From contig NZ_QLIR01000010.1 of the NCBI RefSeq assembly GCF_003428155.1, forward strand, positions 1-32,000: a DNA stretch of 32,000 nucleotides. Direction: 5' to 3'. The notes under the pieces were generated by a model. That model did no database searches. It was not told the DNA's origin and saw nothing but the letters and a program-made list of their open reading frames with translations. The translations under genes were made by a program, and so were the position numbers. Origin of the DNA: Fastidiosibacter lacustris (GTDB lineage Bacteria; Pseudomonadota; Gammaproteobacteria; Francisellales; Francisellaceae). Within the stretch, counting starts at the first letter, position 1. Each line of letters starts with the position of its first letter. Of this stretch, positions 1,645-32,000 are shown in pieces.

Positions 1645-3828
1645 ATGTCAGAGTTTATCAGAAATCTTCAATCCCTAAATGCAAAACAGCGTGAAGCCGT
1701 TTTAATTGATCAAGAAAACGCCTTAATACTTGCAGGAGCAGGAAGTGGAAAAACACGTGTCCTGACACATAGAATTGCTTATTTATGTCAGGAAAAAAAT
1801 ATTTCACCATTAAATATTTTGGCAGTTACTTTTACCAATAAAGCCGCAAGGGAAATGAAAGAACGTATTGAAAATTTACTTGGTTTTTCTACCGTTGGTA
1901 TGTGGATTGGCACATTTCACGGAATTGCTCATAGACTCTTACGTCAACATGCTTCAGAGCTTGGTTTTGACAGACGATTTAAAGTATTAGATCAAGATGA
2001 CCAATTGCAAATTATAAAAAAAGTTATCCATAGTTTAAATTTAGATGAAAAGTTTTATCCGCCTAAATATCTACAAAGCTTTATTAACGGCAAAAAAGAT
2101 GAAGGTATTCGTGCAATTGATTTACCTACAGAGGAGTTTAATAACGAAATTATTAAAATTTATCAAGTCTATGAAGTGCGCTTAAGAGCAAATAATGCAT
2201 TAGATTTTGCAGACTTACTACTTTATGCTTATGAATTGTTTAAAGAAAATATGGTATTAAGCCAATATTATCAACGGCGTTTTCAACACATTTTAGTGGA
2301 TGAGTTTCAAGACACTAATAGTGTTCAATACAAATGGCTAATGGCTTTGAAATCCGATACAAATAGCATTATGGCAGTTGGAGATGATGACCAGTCTATC
2401 TATGGTTGGCGAGGAGCTAGGGTTGAAAATATCAAACACTTTATTGATGATTTGGCAAGTGTGCGCATCGTACGTCTAGAGCAGAATTATCGCTCTACTC
2501 AAATCATATTAGATGCAGCAAACGCAGTGATTGCAAATAATCCTAAACGGATGGGCAAAATGCTGTGGTCTGAGAAAGAAAAGGGAGAAAAAATTTCCGT
2601 TTATGAGGCATTTAATGAGCGTGACGAAGCTGATTACATTAGTGCTAAAATTTATGATTTATATCATACACATCACGTTTCGTTATCGGATATTTCAGTT
2701 TTGTATCGCTCAAACGCACAATCGCGTGTCCTTGAAGAAGCGCTGTTAAAAACCGGAATTGCCTATCGTATTTATGGAGGAATGCGCTTTTTTGATCGTG
2801 CGGAAATTAAAGATGCTTTGGCCTATATGCGACTAATTGCTTTGCGTGTAGATAATCTTGCATTTGAACGGGTGATTAATTTACCAGCTAGAGGCATTGG
2901 TCAAAAAACAATAGAAAGTATTCGTAAATACTCAACCGTACATGATTTGTCATTATGGCATGCAAGTTGTGAAATGATTGAGCGTAAGTTGCTTCCCACA
3001 CGATCTGCTGCGTCAATTCAAAAATTTATAGATTTAATTGAAGACATGGCTGCTGTTAAAAACCTTATGAAACTTGGAGCATTAATGCGTCATGTGATAG
3101 ATTTCAGTGGATTGATGCTTATGCATGAACAAAGCAAAGCCGAAAAATCACAGCAAAAATGTGAAAACCTCAAAGAGCTGGTTAATGCTGCGGCTGAGTT
3201 TATACCTCCTATAGAAGATGTGGCAGAAGAAGATCTATTGGTGGAGTTTTTAAACTTTGCTGTTTTGGAATCAGGTGAAATGCAAGCTGCAGAACATGAC
3301 GATAGTGTACAAATGATGACACTACACATGGCAAAAGGATTAGAGTTTCCTTATGTATTCATTTCAGGATTAGAAGACGGCTTATTTCCATCATCACGTT
3401 CAGTTGAAGTCGTTGATAAACTAGCAGAAGAACGTAGGCTTTGTTATGTGGGAATCACGCGAGCCATGCGTCATCTAACATTAAGCTATTGTAAGATACG
3501 TCATCAATATGGTGACATGAGTTATCAGATCAAGTCGCGTTTTTTACAGGAAATTCCCAAAGAATATTTACAATATGTTCGAAATCGCAAACCAGAAAAA
3601 TTGGAAAAAACAATGGGCTTTGGCATTTCACCGTTTGATTTTGTCAAAGAGCAAAATACAGAAGCAGAATTTAAAATAGGTGAATTTATCAATCACACAA
3701 AATTTGGAATTGGGGTGATACTTAAGCTTGAAGGTGAAGGTGATAACCTTTGCTACCATGTGGACTTTAAAGCTGGAGAGGGAAAAAAGGTATTGTTGGC
3801 TAAAATGGCAAAGCTTATGAAATTATAG
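1645..3828 (+). CDS. uvrD: DNA helicase II (UvrD, SF1 3'-5' helicase)
   Basis: 727 aa. The N-terminus LNAKQREAV...LILAGAGSGKTRVLTHRIAYL...AVTFTNKAAREM is colinear with E. coli UvrD. Also carries DEFQDT, GDDDQSIYGWRGA and QNYRST motifs. Confidence 0.93.
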   Translation: MSEFIRNLQSLNAKQREAVLIDQENALILAGAGSGKTRVLTHRIAYLCQEKNISPLNILAVTFTNKAAREMKERIENLLGFSTVGMWIGTFHGIAHRLLRQHASELGFDRRFKVLDQDDQLQIIKKVIHSLNLDEKFYPPKYLQSFINGKKDEGIRAIDLPTEEFNNEIIKIYQVYEVRLRANNALDFADLLLYAYELFKENMVLSQYYQRRFQHILVDEFQDTNSVQYKWLMALKSDTNSIMAVGDDDQSIYGWRGARVENIKHFIDDLASVRIVRLEQNYRSTQIILDAANAVIANNPKRMGKMLWSEKEKGEKISVYEAFNERDEADYISAKIYDLYHTHHVSLSDISVLYRSNAQSRVLEEALLKTGIAYRIYGGMRFFDRAEIKDALAYMRLIALRVDNLAFERVINLPARGIGQKTIESIRKYSTVHDLSLWHASCEMIERKLLPTRSAASIQKFIDLIEDMAAVKNLMKLGALMRHVIDFSGLMLMHEQSKAEKSQQKCENLKELVNAAAEFIPPIEDVAEEDLLVEFLNFAVLESGEMQAAEHDDSVQMMTLHMAKGLEFPYVFISGLEDGLFPSSRSVEVVDKLAEERRLCYVGITRAMRHLTLSYCKIRHQYGDMSYQIKSRFLQEIPKEYLQYVRNRKPEKLEKTMGFGISPFDFVKEQNTEAEFKIGEFINHTKFGIGVILKLEGEGDNLCYHVDFKAGEGKKVLLAKMAKLMKL

Positions 3829-3875
3829 CCAATACCAGTTGCAAAATCAGTTGTTTTGTAAAACCATGCAACGTT

Positions 3876-5249
3876 TCAAAATGAATTTGAGTGAGTAACA
3901 ACTACTACTGCTTTTTGCAATAAGCGTTGATGCAAATTTTCAAATCCCCCATTACTCATAATCACAAAATGCTTAAATAAAGGACTTTTATAACTTTTTT
4001 CAAAGACCTTAACGATATCTTCGATTTGGTCAAATACTAAAAAAGTCTCACTTTGATGGGATCTTGCCTGCCACTGCATGTTAGTATTTTGATAGAACCA
4101 TACTTCATCAGCAAATTTTAATGCTTGAATTAGGTCTTTTTCTTGAGCACCCATTTTCATTGTATTGGATCTAGCTTCTAAAATAGCCACTACCTTTTGC
4201 GCATCTGAAGCTTTGGCTTTTAGCGCTTGTAAAGTATGTTTCACTGCTGTTGGATGATGGGCAAAATCATCATAAATAGCACAATAATGGTCTTGATAAA
4301 TACATTCTAAACGTCTTTTAACACCTTTAAAGTTCGCAAAACTAGCTTGTATTTTATCAAATGAAATGTCAATACACTTTGCAACTGTATAAGCCATAAG
4401 CGCATTTTTTGCATTATGTTCACCCAACATTGACCACTTGATTAAATGACATTTATCATTATCACTCAATACAAACTCACTATAATCAGCATTAATGGGT
4501 TTAATATCTAAAATTTGATTTTTTATTGGTAATTTATTTGACCATACGCCCATCGTTAATAAATGAGCAATATTCTGATCATCCTGTGGATAGATAATGC
4601 TTGCCTTACCTGGCATCATTCTAAATAGATAATGAAATTGCCGATATATGTCATCCATGCTATTGAAAATATCCGCATGGTCAAACTCAAGGTTATTAAT
4701 CGTTAGAATATCAGGATGATAATGTATGAATTTAGAGCGCTTATCAAAAAAAGTTGTGTCGTATTCATCAGCCTCTATTACAAAAATTTCAGAATCAGTT
4801 AAACGGGATGACACACCAAAATCCTGACTGATCCCACCAATTAGAAAACCAGGGTTAAGATCCGCATCATCTAATAATTTAACAATTAATGACGTGGTTG
4901 TGGTTTTGCCATGAGTACCTGACACAGCGATGACCTTTTTCGTTTTAAGAACTTCATTATAAAGCCAACTAGGTGCTGAATAATATTGCAGCTCACTGTT
5001 TAATAGCGTCTCAACAATTGGCATACCACGACGCATGGTATTACCAACGATTACCTCGTCTAACTTAAGCGAAGTGATATCATAATCATAACCTTGCATA
5101 ATTTGAATGCCTTGCAATTCAAGATAAGTGCTCATAGGAGGGTAAACGTTGTGATCACTACCTGTTACATGATAACCTTTTTGGCGTGCCAAGACCGCTA
5201 AGGCACCCATAAACGTCCCGCAAATTCCTAAAATATGAACATGCTTCAT
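3876..5249 (-). CDS. mpl: UDP-N-acetylmuramate:L-alanyl-gamma-D-glutamyl-meso-DAP ligase (murein peptide ligase)
   Basis: 457 aa. The N-terminus HILGICGTFMGALAVLARQKGYHVTGSDHNVYPPMSTYLE is nearly identical in pattern to E. coli Mpl. Has the Mur ligase P-loop GTHGKTTTTS. Confidence 0.93.
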   Translation of the reverse strand: MKHVHILGICGTFMGALAVLARQKGYHVTGSDHNVYPPMSTYLELQGIQIMQGYDYDITSLKLDEVIVGNTMRRGMPIVETLLNSELQYYSAPSWLYNEVLKTKKVIAVSGTHGKTTTTSLIVKLLDDADLNPGFLIGGISQDFGVSSRLTDSEIFVIEADEYDTTFFDKRSKFIHYHPDILTINNLEFDHADIFNSMDDIYRQFHYLFRMMPGKASIIYPQDDQNIAHLLTMGVWSNKLPIKNQILDIKPINADYSEFVLSDNDKCHLIKWSMLGEHNAKNALMAYTVAKCIDISFDKIQASFANFKGVKRRLECIYQDHYCAIYDDFAHHPTAVKHTLQALKAKASDAQKVVAILEARSNTMKMGAQEKDLIQALKFADEVWFYQNTNMQWQARSHQSETFLVFDQIEDIVKVFEKSYKSPLFKHFVIMSNGGFENLHQRLLQKAVVVVTHSNSF

Positions 5250-25476: not shown

Positions 25477-26029
25477 TTATTTTAGTTCAGTAAACGCTTG
25501 CGATAAATCATTTTTTAAATCCTCAATATCTTCAAAACCGAGACTTACTCTCATTAACCATCCTGATCTATCCCAACTATTTGGTAATCTATAACTTTGG
25601 GGGCTTTCCACGGGGACTAATAAGCTTTCATGCCCACCCCAACTGTGTCCTAAACCAAAAATTTTTAGTCTATTTAACATTTTATCTAAAGACTTTTTTT
25701 CTATTTTATCTGATAAAGTAAATGCAAAAAACGCCAGAAGAGCCTTGAAAATCTCTTTTCCATAAATGATGCTGAGGATGTGTTTTTAATGCTGGAAATA
25801 TCACTTCGGAAACTATAGGTGTTTTAGACAGCCATTGAGCTAGTTTCATTGCTTGTATCTGGTGGTGTTTTAAACGAACAGATAGACTCCTAATCCCTTG
25901 AATTGCTGCATAAACATCCTCATTGCCGGCACATTGACCTGATTGTATAGTATATGTTCTTAACATATCATATGTTTTTTCATCAGATATTATTATGCCT
26001 AGAATACTCAATGAATGAGCTAAACGTTA
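25477..26029 (-). pseudogene. metC: Cystathionine beta-lyase (metC) remnant: 5'-truncated, frameshifted, with in-frame stops
   Basis: Two track ORFs (25706-26011 and 25477-25680) align in order to roughly the C-terminal 180-190 aa of E. coli MetC. Examples: GIRSLSVRLKHHQ..., FPALKTHPQHHLWKRDFQGSSGVF, then HSWGGHESLL...RVSLGFEDIEDLKNDL. The frame changes around an A7 run at about 25694-25700. Upstream, AHSLSILG (compare GHSDAMIG) is preceded by TAA TAA. The N-terminal roughly 200 codons, including the PLP-Lys region, are absent. Confidence 0.8.
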
Positions 26030-26996: not shown

Positions 26997-27130
26997 TTAT
27001 TGTTTCCCAAACAGTGTTTTGATAATACCATTCATCATTCCAACTTGAAGTAATTTTAAATTTACTTGAAATATCTCTGAACATCTATAGTGATCAATAG
27101 AATTAAAATTTATTTATGCAGATGATATGC

Positions 27131-27159
27131 TTGATTAATTATATCTTTTATGGTGTTAT
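27131..27159 (+). promoter_or_regulatory. Possible promoter for the small-peptide operon (TTGATT-N17-TGTTAT)
   Basis: Hexamers at 27131-27136 and 27154-27159, about 58 nt upstream of the peptide ATG. The -10 is weak and the call is low-confidence in AT-rich DNA. Confidence 0.25.
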
Positions 27160-27216
27160 CATTACTGAGCAGCCGTTAATACTGTTCTTATGAAGTTAAT
27201 AAAATTAGGAGAAAGG

Positions 27217-27336
27217 ATGATGGAAGATAAAAATGTAACTGAGAAACCTGTTCAGAAAAAGAAAAAGCTTGATCACAATAAAATATTTGCGATCACAAGA
27301 AAGGGCTCTCCTGTACTTAGGAGTGTAATCAACTAA
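27217..27336 (+). CDS. Unannotated 39-aa Lys-rich peptide ORF: candidate RiPP precursor (or regulatory leader peptide)
   Basis: Translates to MMEDKNVTEKPVQKKKKLDHNKIFAITRKGSPVLRSVIN. AGGAG at 27207-27211 lies 5 nt before the ATG. The TAA stop at 27334-27336 is followed 13 nt later by a strong terminator hairpin. It is the first gene of a co-directional cluster with modification-type and export genes. Below the track's size cutoff. Confidence 0.5.
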   Translation: MMEDKNVTEKPVQKKKKLDHNKIFAITRKGSPVLRSVIN

Positions 27337-27349
27337 AATATAATCATTA

Positions 27350-27388
27350 CATTAACCCTGTATTGGACATAGGGTTAATGTGTTTTTT
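27350..27388 (+). terminator. Rho-independent terminator/attenuator between the peptide ORF and downstream genes
   Basis: CATTAACCCT (27350-27359), an 11-nt loop, AGGGTTAATG (27371-27380), then TGTTTTTT (27381-27388). The stem is a perfect 10 bp. The next gene's GTG is at 27406, leaving no room for a separate promoter. Confidence 0.75.
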
Positions 27389-27405
27389 AAGAGCTCTTAG
27401 CTCTT

Positions 27406-28206
27406 GTGAAATTTGAAGAAATTATTCCATTCAGTAAAAAAATAAATGTTTTAAATTTGGGATCTAAGATGATAGAGGGTGATCCATCTGGTTATGAGAG
27501 TTTACCTAACATAAACGTGGTTAAAATTGATGGAAATAATGTTAATGATGAAACCCTAACGGTGATTATCGGAGATAGTTCTGAAAAAACTTTTTATAAC
27601 TGTAATTTGGAGACTTGCTCATCTCTTTTTTCACCAAATTTTGAGCTTATGGATTTATATAACAATATTTCAGAGTGGCTCACAGTTATTTCATATCACA
27701 AAGTTAGTACCAAAAACTTCAAAGATTTACATTTATCTTATTTGCCAGATTACACTAAATCAGATTTACAAGGTTCTAACCTAATGACAATTCAATATGG
27801 TGGAAAATATACAGATCATGCTCTAGTTATTGAGGTAGAGGTTGAATTTATTCAGCAGTATGTTATTTCAGAAATTGAACAAGTGTTAAGAGAAAAGAGG
27901 GTTAAGTTTCATACTTTTACTGGTTATGGGTCAAGACTGCTCAAACCAATGTTGTTTGTAGATAATCCGTTTCAAGCATTTAATCAATGGATGTGGGGGC
28001 ATGCTGTCTTTATTAAAGATATTACAGGCTATAAAAAACTATCAGAAGAAAAGCTTTACAAGCTTTCTCAAATAGCACATAACGTCTATTCTTCCTATGA
28101 CTTGAGTGCACATTGTCTATCCATAATTGATAACAGAATTGGATCTAACCTTGTTAAAAGGTATTTGAGCTCAATAAAGGAAGTAAAGTATGAAGTCGAT
28201 GAATAA
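27406..28206 (+). CDS. FkbM-family (Methyltransf_21)-like methyltransferase-fold protein, divergent
   Basis: 266 aa with a GTG start. The layout resembles FkbM proteins as I recall them. LNLGS stands for DVGA; TCSSLFSPN for SSL..PN; DYTKSDLQGSNLMTIQYG for DFLKIDTQGAEL.VL.G; LVIEVEVEF for v.iE.ef; and WGHAVFIKD for gDAlF. The glycine-rich SAM motif is poorly conserved. The coding call is firm; the function call is tentative. Confidence 0.45.
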   Translation: MKFEEIIPFSKKINVLNLGSKMIEGDPSGYESLPNINVVKIDGNNVNDETLTVIIGDSSEKTFYNCNLETCSSLFSPNFELMDLYNNISEWLTVISYHKVSTKNFKDLHLSYLPDYTKSDLQGSNLMTIQYGGKYTDHALVIEVEVEFIQQYVISEIEQVLREKRVKFHTFTGYGSRLLKPMLFVDNPFQAFNQWMWGHAVFIKDITGYKKLSEEKLYKLSQIAHNVYSSYDLSAHCLSIIDNRIGSNLVKRYLSSIKEVKYEVDE

Positions 28207-29458
28207 TTTTATTATTTTTATATGCGCACAAAATTTCTCGGTCATTGCATTTAGATTTTTTCAGCTTCTTTTAGCTTGGGTGACATTAGCGCAGACACAT
28301 TCTGGTTATCTTTTGGGCGTGGTTGTGACTGTATCCTGGATTGCGAATATTATATTTTTGCCATTTTCTGGTTACTGCTTAGATCGATATAAAAAGGGAT
28401 TAGTAATTTTTCTTGCTAACTTTGTTTCATTGATATTGATTTTAATGTTTTTTATCAATTTGATATGTTTTTCTTATAATTTGATGATTGTTATTCTGAT
28501 AACCATAATACTAAGTGTCGCAGATTCAATTCTTTTGTCGGCGCCTAACACAATTATTCCCTTTATTGTTGAAAAAGAGAAGATAAGTAAGTTTACTGGT
28601 TTTTGGGGCAGTATTGCTTCTTTACAAACAATTATCGGTGCACTGGCTGGTGGAAGTACAATGGCTCTGTTTGGTGACAAATTATCAATCTTGATAATTG
28701 CTTGTTTATATTTTGTTGCTCTGATTTTTAGTTTTATTTTAATGAAAAATAAATTACTACTACATGCATCTATTGCTAAAGGGCAGGAATTTTATCAGCA
28801 GCTATTAAAAGGTTTTAGTGTTTTAGTCAAATTAACTCCTGAGCGTACGTTATGTCTTATTGGTATAACGGGTAATTTTGTAGTGACGCCACTTTTAATG
28901 ATCCTACTACCTGTATATATACAGATATTCTTAAACCTATCAATTATATATCTCGCAATCATGGAGATTTGCTTTGGCTTAGGTTTATTGATAACGAGCA
29001 TGCTTGTAGGGAAGCTGCTTTCAAAAGATGTGAAGAGGCTAACTTTAATTTTAACTGGAAATACCCTTACAGCAATTAGCATCATGTTATTCCCTGTGGT
29101 CAGTTTTTTATACTTGAAACTGCTCTTGCTTTTTCTTATTGGAAGCGGTCTCGCACTGAATAACATTTCAACGAGTTCTCTACGTGCATTAGCTGTGCCG
29201 GATGATATTAGAGGAAGACTTGAGTCGGCTATCTATTTTTTTTGTATTTTATCCATCCCCGCTGGTAGTTATACCTTTGGGATATTCACTCAAACAAAGC
29301 AGAGTCAACAGATCACTGTCATTATGATTATTATGGGCAGCATGATTTTATTCTCATTACTATTTATTCTGCTATCGCCACTGACATATAAAACCTTATT
29401 ATGTAAAGACAGAGACCTTAAAAATTATTACAAAAGAAGGTTTCCAAATATCCTTTAA
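28190..29458 (+). CDS. MFS transporter, DHA3/EntS-like efflux type
   Basis: 422 aa with about 12 TM segments. The N-terminal pattern FRFFQLLLAWVTLAQTHSGYLLGVVVTVSWIANIIFLPFSGYCLDRYKK is typical of the MFS_3/DHA3 family. AAGGAAG SD. 17-nt overlap with the upstream gene. Confidence 0.85.
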   Translation: MKSMNNFIIFICAQNFSVIAFRFFQLLLAWVTLAQTHSGYLLGVVVTVSWIANIIFLPFSGYCLDRYKKGLVIFLANFVSLILILMFFINLICFSYNLMIVILITIILSVADSILLSAPNTIIPFIVEKEKISKFTGFWGSIASLQTIIGALAGGSTMALFGDKLSILIIACLYFVALIFSFILMKNKLLLHASIAKGQEFYQQLLKGFSVLVKLTPERTLCLIGITGNFVVTPLLMILLPVYIQIFLNLSIIYLAIMEICFGLGLLITSMLVGKLLSKDVKRLTLILTGNTLTAISIMLFPVVSFLYLKLLLLFLIGSGLALNNISTSSLRALAVPDDIRGRLESAIYFFCILSIPAGSYTFGIFTQTKQSQQITVIMIIMGSMILFSLLFILLSPLTYKTLLCKDRDLKNYYKRRFPNIL

Positions 29459-29486: not shown

Positions 29487-30533
29487 ATGATCAATGTAGC
29501 CGAAATAAATTGGGCAAAACCTTCGAATTATAATGCCAGTCAACTAATTCATCTTAATAATCAAGAAGCTATAGAAAGTCTAATTTACCTGTCAGAGTTT
29601 ATTGAAGTAGATGTTAAACTACTCAATACTCTGAGCATAGATCGCTTTAAAAATAAGTTATATAAACACATGCCTCAATTATATATTACTCATGAAGCTG
29701 TTAAAACCGCAGTTGAAGATGGTGAGCTTAATTTAGCCAAAAACTACATTACATCGTTTATCAACCTGATCAATAAACCTACTAAAGATAAGTCACAATC
29801 TTCATGTAGAATATTAAGATATAGTTCAGGATATAATAAAGTGTTAATGGGTGCAGTTATTAATATTACTGGACGTGATCGTAAAACTACTTACAAAAAT
29901 AATTACAGAGGAGAACAAACTGTCATAAATGTTCCTACTGAAAGTCAATTTATAGTGACCAGCAATATAGTAAAGCAAGTATTTTCAATCCTAGAAAGAA
30001 TTGAACCTATTCATTACGATGAGATTAATACTGTAGTAAATGAAATTATTGTGATTGAGTCTAATGGCATAAATGCAGCTACTTATCTTAACCATTTGGG
30101 AGCAATTTATATTAGAGCTTACAAAGAAAAAACTGAGCATTGGTCAAGAATTGTAGAACATATTACTCATGAAGCCGCTCATAACTTACTCTATCATATT
30201 TGGTTTAGGGAAAGAATTCTGATTGATGACAATGGATTATTCTATACTCCTTTTCGCCTGGACTACAGACCAATTAGTGGCGTTTTTCACGCGATGTTTG
30301 TATTAGCCAGAACTATATACACATTTAATTATTTACTCCAAGCAGAAATAAGTAACTTATCTTACGAAGATATTAGTAGCCATTATAATGAAGCCAATAA
30401 TACACTGAAATTTAAGGAAAAATTTCGACAGACAGTAAATGTATTAAATAGCTCAAAGAAATTGACTGTATTTGGAGAAAAAATAATTAATGATTGTATT
30501 GAATTAGTACATAAATGTCACATTGGAATATAG
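29487..30533 (+). CDS. Stand-alone HExxH-motif protein, putative peptide-modifying enzyme (TIGR04267-like; alpha-KG-dependent peptide beta-hydroxylase family)
   Basis: 348 aa with a GAGGGAG SD. HEAAH at aa 228-232 (nt 30168-30182) sits in the context SRIVEHITHEAAHNLLYHIWF. Downstream, YTPFRLDYRPISGVFHAMFVLARTIYTF matches my recollection of the family's second conserved block (P.R...RP..G..H). No signal peptide. Confidence 0.55.
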   Translation: MINVAEINWAKPSNYNASQLIHLNNQEAIESLIYLSEFIEVDVKLLNTLSIDRFKNKLYKHMPQLYITHEAVKTAVEDGELNLAKNYITSFINLINKPTKDKSQSSCRILRYSSGYNKVLMGAVINITGRDRKTTYKNNYRGEQTVINVPTESQFIVTSNIVKQVFSILERIEPIHYDEINTVVNEIIVIESNGINAATYLNHLGAIYIRAYKEKTEHWSRIVEHITHEAAHNLLYHIWFRERILIDDNGLFYTPFRLDYRPISGVFHAMFVLARTIYTFNYLLQAEISNLSYEDISSHYNEANNTLKFKEKFRQTVNVLNSSKKLTVFGEKIINDCIELVHKCHIGI

Positions 30534-30740: not shown

Positions 30741-32000
30741 TCAAATCCCGGATATAGTCATAGGCATCTGATTATTCATTTTGCTTTGACGTATAACACC
30801 CTTTGTTTTATCTGACAAATCAATATGAGTAAGTGCTAGATCATATAACGATGCGGTTAGAAGTCGTCCTTCATACATTGAAAACGCCTTACAAATCGCA
30901 TTTTGCATGATTTCTTTTATGTCCTTAAAAACATATTCAACTGATATTCTATCCTTTGGTGTTGACATCATAGTATAAAATGTGCGTGCCATCCCCATAT
31001 TTGCTAGAAAATCAGGAATAACAGCAAGTTTAGCATCTAAAGATTGTGAACATAAACCATAGCAATATTCTCTTTCCACAAATGGATGATTTGCTCCACA
31101 TGAAATGAGCTCCAAACCATTTGTTATCATTTTATCAACTAAATTTTTCGCGATTATGTTTGATCCTGCCGCAGGAATAAGGACATCTATTTTTGTTATC
31201 GCTAGGATTTTATTAAATTCAGCATGAGACATATTATCTGGCAAAACCTTTAACACACGCCTTGCGCACACAAGATCATTAATTTGTTTGGCACTTAAAC
31301 CGTCATTCATAATCACACCAGCATCACGATCTGTCAGCGCAATGATTTTCGCTCCCGCTTGATGCAAATAGTAGGCAGCAGCAGCGCCAACATTACCTGC
31401 TCCTTGTACGTAGATACGCTTATTGTTCACATGCTCATTTTTTGCTTGATAATAAGCAATAACCGTCTGTGCAACGCCATAACCCGTAACCATTTCTGCT
31501 AACTTTACTTCACTTTCTGCAACCTTAACCACTGAATTTAATAGCAACATGTTTTGGTAAGCAGTTTGAGTTTTTATTTCATCACCCTTACAAAACGCAT
31601 GAATAATACCTTGTTGAGAGTTATCAAGACCTAAGCCACGTAAGATCTGATTAATTTTATGAATATCAGTGTTTAAGTCACTACCTGTTCCATAGTACTC
31701 AGCTAAAAGTGGACGAATAGCTTTATACCAACGCTCAAGCACACCATATTTATCTGGGCAATCAGGATCAAGTCGAATACCTGTTTTAGCGCCACCAATG
31801 GCAGGACCAGATAATGCAAATTTTATTTCCATAATTTTAGCAAGGGTTGTTACTTCTTCTAACGTGATACGCTCATGCACACGTGTACCACCACCTGCTG
31901 CATTGCCACGTAAAGAGTTAATTACTAAAAAACCATGCGCAGAAGACTTCTTATCTCTCCATTGAAATGTAATTTCTGGTTCTTGTTGTGAAAATTGTTC
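30741..32000 (-). CDS. Glu/Leu/Phe/Val-family amino acid dehydrogenase (5' end beyond the window)
   Basis: The frame stays open upstream of the track's GTG at 31880 to the window edge: ...HGFLVINSLRGNAAGGGTRVHERITLEEV. Also has the catalytic region AIGGAKTGI and the Rossmann motif VQGAGNVGAAAAYYL. At least 419 aa are visible. Confidence 0.85.
   Translation of the reverse strand, partial: EQFSQQEPEITFQWRDKKSSAHGFLVINSLRGNAAGGGTRVHERITLEEVTTLAKIMEIKFALSGPAIGGAKTGIRLDPDCPDKYGVLERWYKAIRPLLAEYYGTGSDLNTDIHKINQILRGLGLDNSQQGIIHAFCKGDEIKTQTAYQNMLLLNSVVKVAESEVKLAEMVTGYGVAQTVIAYYQAKNEHVNNKRIYVQGAGNVGAAAAYYLHQAGAKIIALTDRDAGVIMNDGLSAKQINDLVCARRVLKVLPDNMSHAEFNKILAITKIDVLIPAAGSNIIAKNLVDKMITNGLELISCGANHPFVEREYCYGLCSQSLDAKLAVIPDFLANMGMARTFYTMMSTPKDRISVEYVFKDIKEIMQNAICKAFSMYEGRLLTASLYDLALTHIDLSDKTKGVIRQSKMNNQMPMTISGI

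Follow-up and report, generated by a model that had tools for sequence, protein, structure and literature searches.

A conserved small open reading frame with a stop-proximal hairpin as a candidate precursor-peptide gene of an aKG-HExxH hydroxylase cluster in Fastidiosibacter lacustris

In this work, we analyze a 39-codon open reading frame (ORF) of Fastidiosibacter lacustris and the hairpin that follows its stop codon. The stretch of DNA under study, hereafter called the window, comprises 32,000 nucleotides (positions 1 to 32,000 of the forward strand) of contig NZ_QLIR01000010.1 in assembly GCF_003428155.1. The ORF stands ahead of genes for an FkbM-like methyltransferase, a major facilitator superfamily (MFS) exporter and a hydroxylase of the aKG-HExxH type. 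We consider it probable that the ORF is the gene of a substrate or precursor peptide in an operon with these three genes, and that the hairpin serves as a partial terminator dividing expression between the peptide and the enzymes.

Features of the locus

The features of the locus are collected in Table 1.

Table 1. Positions in the window of the small ORF, its signals and the adjoining genes
Feature	Position	Strand	Description
Shine-Dalgarno sequence AGGAGA	27207..27212	+	4 nt 5' of ATG 27217, 7 nt 5' of ATG 27220
Candidate precursor-peptide gene	27217..27336	+	39 aa, MMEDKNVTEKPVQKKKKLDHNKIFAITRKGSPVLRSVIN; 38 aa if the start is 27220
Conserved 21-codon C-terminal module	27271..27333	+	Asp19 to Asn39, D-x-x-K/R-[ILV]-F-x14-N; length fixed relative to the stop codon
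Hairpin, 14 pairs, 7-nt loop	27348..27382	+	perfect 10-bp core plus A-U and G-U pairs; -17.2 kcal/mol
T6 run	27383..27388	+	completes the intrinsic-terminator signature in the sequence
Second predicted stem-loop (UAAGAGCU/AGCUCUUG)	27383..27413	+	includes both the U-run and the start codon (GTG) of the methyltransferase gene
FkbM-family methyltransferase-like gene	27406..28206	+	266 aa from GTG 27406; homologues carry PF05050
MFS transporter gene	28190..29458	+	422 aa; nearest NCBIfam models are H+ antiporter subfamily TIGR00900 and EntS, both below cutoff
aKG-HExxH-type peptide beta-hydroxylase gene	29487..30533	+	348 aa; HESAH at residues 228-232

Two in-frame ATG codons (27217 and 27220) open the ORF, and a TAA codon at 27334-27336 closes it. 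The original prediction, which was made from the sequence alone, had described a 39-residue ORF with a strong Shine-Dalgarno sequence and perfect 10-bp terminator arms; each of these is present, and the peptide matches exactly. Its description of the ORF as unannotated is also essentially right. A public protein collection contains the 38-residue product of the second ATG (P0033) without an accession or a name, an exact-sequence look-up of the 39-residue form returned no entry (nor did one of the hydroxylase), and the orthologue in Xenorhabdus szentirmaii (PHM35413.1) is annotated just as a hypothetical protein. A longer, 48-codon version beginning at ATG 27190 was rejected: it has no Shine-Dalgarno sequence, and the residues that it adds are unmatched in relatives.

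The peptide is very basic, with a lysine-rich N-terminus, and searches of Pfam and NCBIfam as permissive as E <= 10 gave no family for it. No convincing promoter was found for the ORF, the promoter scan giving fewer matches than shuffled sequence. Inside the ORF, the terminator scan flagged a minus-strand terminator-like site at an imperfect inverted repeat (TGATCACAATAAAATATTTGCGATCA, 27270-27295); the repeat is not seen in related loci and is probably a chance occurrence. Note that neither the ORF nor the terminator-like site is unusual in AT-rich DNA: 8 kb of window DNA contains 64 ORFs of at least 25 codons, and the terminator scan gave 5 sites against 3.5 +/- 2.0 expected. For this reason, the case for the ORF rests on comparative evidence.

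Conservation of the peptide family

As a comparison set, we collected loci encoding relatives of the hydroxylase from genomes and metagenomes. A tblastn search with the 39-residue peptide found a small ORF 5' of the operon in Vibrio profundum, Vibrio sp., V. europaeus and a metagenome-assembled genome (MAG) of Endozoicomonadaceae, and inspection of the upstream regions of more distant loci revealed a like ORF in Citrobacter youngae, Pseudomonas helleri, five Xenorhabdus species and alphaproteobacterial MAGs. Homologous small ORFs also occur in Photobacterium and Paraburkholderia, on the same strand and just 5' of the orthologous hydroxylase operon. In total, more than 30 loci carry a homologous ORF, and 30 distinct versions of its C-terminal module can be distinguished. 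The original prediction had tied the ORF to the modification and efflux genes downstream, and this tie is supported.

The module is defined by a few residues at constant positions. Counting back from the C-terminus, the final Asn (position 0, Asn39 in the window) and Phe(-15) (Phe24 in the window) are present in 30/30 versions, while Asp(-20) and Lys/Arg(-17) are present in 29/30 each, the exceptions being one Asn and one Met, respectively. The distance from this Asp to the stop codon is the same in all 30 versions, with zero indels. Conservation is strongest in the N-terminal half of the module, D-x-x-K-[ILV]-F, and the last six residues vary widely except for the Asn. The part that precedes the module is variable and often lysine-rich, its length lying between 3 residues (MKK-) and about 65. 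A Shine-Dalgarno sequence (AGGAG, AAGGA or GAGG) lies just 5' of the start in 16/16 distinct related loci. When 445 kb were scanned in six frames with the pattern [DN]..[KRM][ILVM]F.{14}N-stop, each locus gave one match (two in locus L036), all on the strand of the hydroxylase gene, and there was none elsewhere.

Comparison of closely related versions of the 21-codon module shows that substitutions accumulate at third codon positions. The differences at codon positions 1/2/3 are 2/1/16 between L003 and L025 (pN/pS, the ratio of nonsynonymous to synonymous differences per site, 0.08), 6/1/14 between L001 and L004 (0.10), 3/1/10 between L004 and L022 (0.12), 6/1/12 between L007 and L008 (0.19), and 1/1/7 between L010 and L016 (0.08). 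The peptide ORF is thus under purifying selection, with pN/pS of 0.08-0.2 and a third-position bias. The original prediction had proposed conservation of the reading frame in related genomes as a check on the ORF; the frame is kept without indels and the conservation is biased toward synonymous change. Such conservation in related loci indicates that the ORF is real, and the further claim that a functional element is hidden here by a 60-residue ORF cutoff holds as well.

Profile searches, in which the 48-residue ORF formed the first row of the alignment, were run on two collections, one of 5.8 billion proteins and one of 1.84 billion cluster representatives. They returned proteins of 29-46 residues with the same module, together with a 70-residue, N-terminally extended call of one of them (P0044); the sole unrelated return was a weak partial match in a 1383-residue protein. 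Scores among the 1.84 billion cluster representatives reached 70 bits. The small number of returns means that the family is rare or that it is under-called by gene finders. The contigs of two peptides found in this way carry the peptide gene, FkbM, ClpP-family and FmdA/AmdA amidase genes, a 336-codon ORF at the position of the hydroxylase gene, and an EamA gene; the 336-codon ORF has no Pfam match on record and was placed by its position, not by comparison with the hydroxylase.

Some metagenomic members are considerably longer, at 57-89 residues. They comprise a tandem pair in L036 (3638-3904 and 4013-4282), both ending in the same 21-residue module, and single ORFs in L031 (4142-4378), L034 (280-501) and L037 (362-562); the long forms end in ...HFxLDxxK/R[ILV]FDLNGxG...N. 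A leader of the NHLP/Nif11 type was first suspected on the L036 pair and then dropped, as neither Pfam nor NCBIfam supports it. At the other extreme of divergence, a second Fastidiosibacter genome (GCA_024208055.1; L048, 3778-4262) is 99% identical to the window over 26997-27480. The sole change in its ORF is K13Q (AAA to CAA), in the non-conserved N-terminal part, and its hairpin is identical; at this level of identity the pair is too close to inform on selection.

The hairpin after the stop codon

The perfect arms noted in the original prediction, CATTAACCCT (27350-27359) and AGGGTTAATG (27371-27380), begin 13 nt 3' of the stop codon, but the stem is longer than the 10 bp reported there, as it can be extended to 14 pairs. 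The gap between the stop codon and the stem is 11 nt when measured to the extended stem. The predicted folding is considerably more stable than expected (z = -3.7), with one of 200 shuffled sequences folding equally well.

Stable stem-loops also follow the stop codon in the related loci that encode short peptides. Their sequences are unrelated to one another, and they begin about 0-14 nt after the stop codon in most cases (in L008 and L020, the core stem lies up to about 20 nt away), mostly with z = -3 to -7. Significant hairpins of this kind are found in Vibrio, Xenorhabdus, Citrobacter, Pseudomonas, Paraburkholderia and alphaproteobacterial loci. A U-run follows the stem in the window, in V. 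profundum, in several Xenorhabdus loci (L010/L011, L013 and L016) and in the Endozoicomonadaceae locus, while the Citrobacter, Pseudomonas, Paraburkholderia and alphaproteobacterial loci have no clear U-run.

Three loci that lack the FkbM gene have no terminator; instead, a stem sequesters the Shine-Dalgarno sequence of the MFS gene. In these Vibrio/Photobacterium loci (L003 4742-4810, L005 4742-4810 and L025 3742-3810), a stem of 10-12 bp pairs the Shine-Dalgarno sequence with MFS codons (HLASIV), and one compensatory change from A-U to G-C distinguishes L003 from L025. This arrangement suggests translational coupling or masking in place of the terminator. As judged from the sequences, what the loci have in common is a structured element that divides the peptide gene from the genes of the enzymes.

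The small distance between the stop codon and the stem raises the question of how a translating ribosome would influence the hairpin. In E. coli, full folding of a terminator hairpin is considered to need 10-15 nt of free RNA beyond the A site, and when a stop codon that preceded a terminator by 28 nt was placed 5 nt before it instead, termination fell from ~90% to <10% (PMC4824070). The original prediction held that a ribosome at the stop codon would occlude the hairpin. Measured against this threshold, a gap of 11-13 nt could weaken the terminator, although it does not indicate clear occlusion. Leakiness of the terminator could thus result when a ribosome reaches the end of the ORF directly after RNA polymerase, since the gap falls within the 10-15 nt range. 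We regard such ribosome-tuned leakiness as plausible and, in our view, any effect of the ribosome on read-through is a built-in, constitutive tuning rather than a signal-sensing attenuator.

The hydroxylase and the other genes of the cluster

The product of the hydroxylase gene, to which the database protein P0001 is 100% identical, is named HEXXH motif-containing putative peptide modification protein (Fastidiosibacter lacustris) by NCBI, and it passes the TIGR04267 (IPR026337) model marginally, at 40.2 bits with a cutoff of 40. Additional support comes from profile and structure comparisons. The HESAH motif is invariant across 17 homologues, and a profile built from these homologues matches ChlH (PDB 8s5f) with E = 1.9e-9, with the HExxH and R..RP.SG..HA.FV motifs aligned. 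The AF2 model of the protein has a pLDDT, the mean confidence of the model, of 90.3, and its top match in Foldseek is again 8s5f over the full length (E = 8.7e-11, TM 0.65), the next, unrelated match having E > 0.1; sequence identity to ChlH is 16%. Profile and model together place the protein in the aKG-HExxH family, with the predicted fold of the HExxH domain of ChlBH.

The methyltransferase-like protein gave no Pfam or NCBIfam match at E <= 0.01. Its homologues, which are 39-48% identical to it, carry PF05050 and are named FkbM family methyltransferases. The NCBI record (WP_157966617.1) starts the gene at ATG 27469, giving 245 residues. However, the 21 additional N-terminal residues obtained from GTG 27406 align with the homologues, including the region of motif I (INVLNLGS against INVLDLGA), so that the annotated start is probably 21 codons late. 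The GTG codon has no Shine-Dalgarno sequence and lies within the second predicted stem-loop of Table 1. Motif I reads VLNLG in the window protein and VLDLG in the homologues, and the AF2 model (pLDDT 51) is too poor for use.

Among the related loci, the hydroxylase-FkbM pair accompanies the peptide gene almost everywhere; the exceptions are the three Vibrio/Photobacterium loci described above, which consist of peptide, MFS and hydroxylase genes only. The peptide ORF follows the hydroxylase and FkbM genes whatever the transporter (MFS or EamA) or the next gene may be. A ClpP-like gene is found in about half of the related loci, for example in L001 (7036-7623), L002 (2553-3134), L008 (4166-4768), L009 (10006-10599, minus strand), L020 (7447-8058, minus strand) and L043 (7124-7723). 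The Citrobacter/Pseudomonas clade has genes for an FmdA/AmdA amidase and an EamA transporter, and Xenorhabdus has a GNAT gene. The window cluster contains no ClpP-like, FmdA/AmdA, EamA or GNAT gene.

In the Endozoicomonadaceae MAG (L004), a 402-codon ORF on the minus strand (2855-4063), which resembles an IS-type transposase as judged from its translation alone, separates the peptide gene from an FkbM gene that is truncated N-terminally. The peptide ORF itself is intact, and the cluster is probably disrupted.

Interpretation as a probable precursor-peptide gene

Taken as a precursor gene, the ORF combines translation signals and selection at the protein level with a conserved position next to a gene for a peptide-modifying enzyme. 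We take the peptide as the substrate of the hydroxylase for two reasons. First, the characterised aKG-HExxH enzymes, ChlBH, BpmH, PflC/PosC and PesO, all act on ribosomal precursor peptides (PMC12636437). Second, the ORF is the only conserved small ORF that we noticed in these clusters, among which other small ORFs were not screened systematically, and it has Asp, Phe and a C-terminal Asn at fixed positions. The long precursors and the tandem pair, which end in the same module as the short forms, are typical of RiPPs (peptides made by the ribosome and modified after translation).

In the scheme that we propose, the hydroxylase would recognize the 21-residue module and hydroxylate one or more of its constrained residues, the candidates being Asp19, Phe24, the C-terminal Asn39 and the frequent Pro. 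Known substrates of aKG-HExxH enzymes are His, Asp, Phe, Gln and Pro (PMC13060819). The original prediction had speculated on beta-hydroxylation of a D-H-N triplet in the peptide; beta-hydroxylation is indeed the best-supported reading, but the triplet was rejected as a conserved target, since of its residues only the Asp is conserved (29/30) and the invariant residues are Phe24 and Asn39. The FkbM-like methyltransferase would then methylate the peptide, and the MFS pump would export the product, which may be the whole peptide or a processed fragment.

On the side of expression, the hairpin and the T6 run would form a partial intrinsic terminator that yields a short, abundant peptide mRNA with a protected 3' end, and a minority of read-through transcripts would supply the enzymes, as in mccA-mccB. 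The gene order is that of such a divider, with the precursor ORF first and the hairpin before the first enzyme gene. A ribosome finishing the ORF close behind RNA polymerase would probably lower termination, and with the stem only 11-13 nt after the stop codon, read-through would be linked to translation of the peptide.

Several observations weigh against this interpretation. In many members the leader is nearly absent, with only MKK- before the module, and this is unusual for RiPPs; so is the fact that no domain resembling a RiPP recognition element (RRE) was identified. Exporters of the MFS and EamA types are more typical of small molecules than of peptides of 25-40 residues. The ClpP-like peptidase of about half of the relatives is missing from the window cluster, and the window methyltransferase may be weakly expressed or inactive, given its VLNLG motif I, the missing Shine-Dalgarno sequence and the poor structure model. 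Finally, the hairpins that lack a U-run and the three stems that sequester a Shine-Dalgarno sequence mean that a terminator is not the universal form of the element.

Alternative explanations

The alternative that survives best is that the peptide is a scaffold from which a small molecule is made: the C-terminal Asn, or a few C-terminal residues, would be hydroxylated and methylated while still part of the peptide, cut off by a ClpP-like peptidase or an amidase, and exported by a pump of the small-molecule type. The model for this is pantocin A, which is made from PaaP, a precursor of 30 residues with a short, fully conserved region and variable flanks; its pathway (paaP, paaA, paaB, paaC) includes an Fe(II)/2-oxoglutarate oxygenase and an EamA exporter of the small-molecule type, and it yields a product of much smaller size than PaaP (PMC12250964). 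We keep this model open because the C-terminal Asn is invariant (30/30), because the exporters are EamA or MFS proteins (the nearest models of the latter, H+ antiporter and EntS, being below cutoff) rather than ABC-peptidase types, and because ClpP-family and FmdA/AmdA amidase genes are present in many related clusters. However, the window cluster has neither of these two genes, the last six residues of the module vary widely apart from the Asn, and the best-conserved half, D-x-x-K-[ILV]-F, could simply be a recognition sequence. In addition, the window cluster differs from that of pantocin A in having no ThiF-like enzyme and an oxygenase of a different fold family, and the conserved region of its peptide is C-terminal and ends the peptide. 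On balance, we consider the scaffold model unlikely, though worth keeping in mind.

A purely cis-regulatory role is less probable still, and we give it little credence. According to this explanation, which extends the second reading of the original prediction, the ORF encodes a leader or arrest peptide that is not a substrate, and a paused ribosome blocks the terminator and thereby switches on the efflux and modification genes. The layout is certainly that of an attenuator, with a short ORF directly 5' of an intrinsic terminator that precedes putatively regulated genes; as in the trp and his operons, the ErmCL and mef(E) leaders and TnaC, a strong Shine-Dalgarno sequence precedes the ORF, and a hairpin with a U-run lies close behind it. 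The gap between stop codon and stem is small throughout the family (0-14 nt), and terminators so placed are repressed by the ribosome in E. coli (PMC4824070). Moreover, the fixed spacing of the conserved residues to the stop codon would suit a nascent-chain arrest motif acting in the exit tunnel, and the MFS pump is weakly similar to Mef-type pumps.

Nevertheless, a classical attenuator is not supported. In the minimum-energy and centroid folds of 27195-27420 the terminator is retained and no helix competes for its 5' arm, that is, there is no alternative antiterminator fold (suboptimal structures were not searched exhaustively). No Rfam leader family matches even at E <= 1. The sole codon run is of Lys codons and falls in the non-conserved part, so that no other regulatory codons are available, and the 21-residue module is strongly constrained at the amino-acid level and co-varies with a peptide-modifying enzyme, that is, it is conserved as a protein. 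The absence of a terminator from three loci points in the same direction. As for an arrest peptide like TnaC, we give it low weight because the ORF follows the hydroxylase-FkbM pair and not the transporter or the next gene, because tandem copies (in L036) and versions of 57-89 residues exist, and because the hydroxylase would otherwise be left with no candidate substrate gene that we noticed in these clusters, where other small ORFs were not systematically compared.

A further explanation takes the product of the ORF for a small protein of independent function (for example a basic peptide that binds nucleic acids, a toxin or an immunity factor) whose gene is merely co-transcribed with the operon; we consider this very improbable. 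The basic character of the peptide, its lysine-rich N-terminus and its lack of a known family would fit such a protein, but the lysine-rich part is the part that is not conserved, and the module co-occurs strictly, across phyla, with the family of a peptide-modifying enzyme. The explanation that ORF and hairpin arose by chance in AT-rich intergenic DNA, where small ORFs abound and terminator-like sites are no commoner than in shuffled sequence, is already refuted by the comparative data, namely the retention of frame, length, invariant residues and third-position-biased substitution across distant genera and the profile scores in a large protein collection.

Comparison with known systems

The precursor-gene interpretation places the cluster beside the RiPP pathways that use aKG-HExxH enzymes, that is, the triceptide-type pathway of ChlBH and the pathways of BpmH (biphenomycins), PflC/PosC and PesO (nitrilobacillins). 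These likewise contain a small precursor gene, a transporter and a stand-alone HExxH enzyme of the ChlH fold, and a conserved Asn is the last residue of the nitrilobacillin precursors too (R(V/T)DN), preceded by a Pro that PesO hydroxylates. The partners differ: radical SAM, MNIO, nitroreductase and Asn-synthetase-like proteins are absent from the window cluster, where the partner is the FkbM-like methyltransferase, joined in relatives by ClpP-like, FmdA/AmdA, GNAT and EamA proteins. The precursor also differs in being 25-40 residues long, often with 3 residues before the module, rather than having a leader of the NHLP type.

The proposed division of expression resembles that of microcin C, whose exporter MccC is likewise an MFS protein. 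There, too, a tiny precursor ORF comes first and an intrinsic terminator precedes the first enzyme gene. The terminator between mccA and mccB gives an abundant, stable precursor transcript and minor read-through, and ribosome occupancy of the small mccA ORF affects termination (PMC4231749). In microcin C, however, ribosome binding induces termination, whereas the geometry in the window suggests that the ribosome, if anything, represses it. The chemistry is different as well, being adenylation in microcin C and, as proposed here, hydroxylation and methylation in the window.

With regard to methylation, a RiPP cluster with an enzyme of the FkbM family is also known from the pythonamide proteusin pathway; this enzyme, EreM, relies on a co-expressed oxygenase for most of its methylations (PMC11285071). 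Enzymes of this family are rare in RiPP pathways, and a report of 2022 gave EreM as the sole member characterised in one (PMC9259500). The likeness to the window protein is one of putative family, and EreM acts on a 46-residue proteusin core with a long leader, unlike the window peptide.

Novelty and implications

A system of this kind, consisting of a RiPP-type precursor, an aKG-HExxH tailoring enzyme, an exporter and an intergenic terminator, is known as such, but the precursor family and the set of enzymes are undescribed in the literature that we searched. None of the six motif strings from the peptide family that were tested was found in full-text literature, nor was HExxH together with FkbM. 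Recognition of the aKG-HExxH enzymes as peptide oxygenases dates only from 2024, and the reactions that they catalyse "at present cannot be predicted" (PMC13060819). A more far-reaching proposal, which we regard as doubtful, is that the peptides represent an undescribed, nearly leaderless class of precursors. In such a class, the Asn-ending 21-residue module would be hydroxylated and FkbM-methylated and then processed to a small metabolite derived from the C-terminal Asn for export by MFS or EamA proteins, and the stop-proximal hairpin would tie expression of the enzymes to translation of the substrate mRNA.

The analysis yields a proposed substrate gene for one clade of stand-alone hydroxylases, which extends over Fastidiosibacter, Vibrio, Photobacterium, Xenorhabdus, Pseudomonas, Citrobacter, Paraburkholderia, relatives of Endozoicomonas, and soil and marine metagenomes. 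Further members can be sought with the signature D-x-x-K/R-[ILV]-F-x14-N-stop 5' of a hydroxylase gene. The minimal members, 25 residues long with 3 of them ahead of the module, would lend themselves to enzymology as substrates, and they pose the question of recognition in the absence of a leader. The recurring hairpin after the stop codon would be a further case in which bacteria adjust the proportion of substrate and enzyme inside a single operon. In addition, there is an annotation gap in the F. lacustris record, which contains no peptide gene and in which the start of the neighbouring methyltransferase gene is probably misplaced.

Flanking regions

The GC content of the cluster is 30-34%, compared with 33-38% in its flanks, and gives no clear sign of a horizontally acquired island. 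On the 5' side of the ORF, a rhodanese/3-mercaptopyruvate sulfurtransferase gene lies on the opposite strand, together with remnants of a gene for cystathionine beta-lyase. The remnants, fragments of 101 and 67 residues at 25477-26011 (minus strand), match positions 207-301 and 315-380 of the profile of pyridoxal phosphate (PLP) enzymes of Cys/Met metabolism, and the region looks like a broken cystathionine beta-lyase gene between the genes of a BarA-like kinase and the rhodanese. In the second Fastidiosibacter genome, a 162-codon ORF of the same Cys/Met-metabolism family is called at the place that matches this region. Convergent on the end of the cluster is a 379-codon gene of the Glu/Leu/Phe/Val dehydrogenase family (30741-31880, minus strand), which has no counterpart beside related clusters and is probably unrelated to the cluster. 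The sole Rfam match in the window at the gathering threshold is a tRNA gene at 1154-1226.

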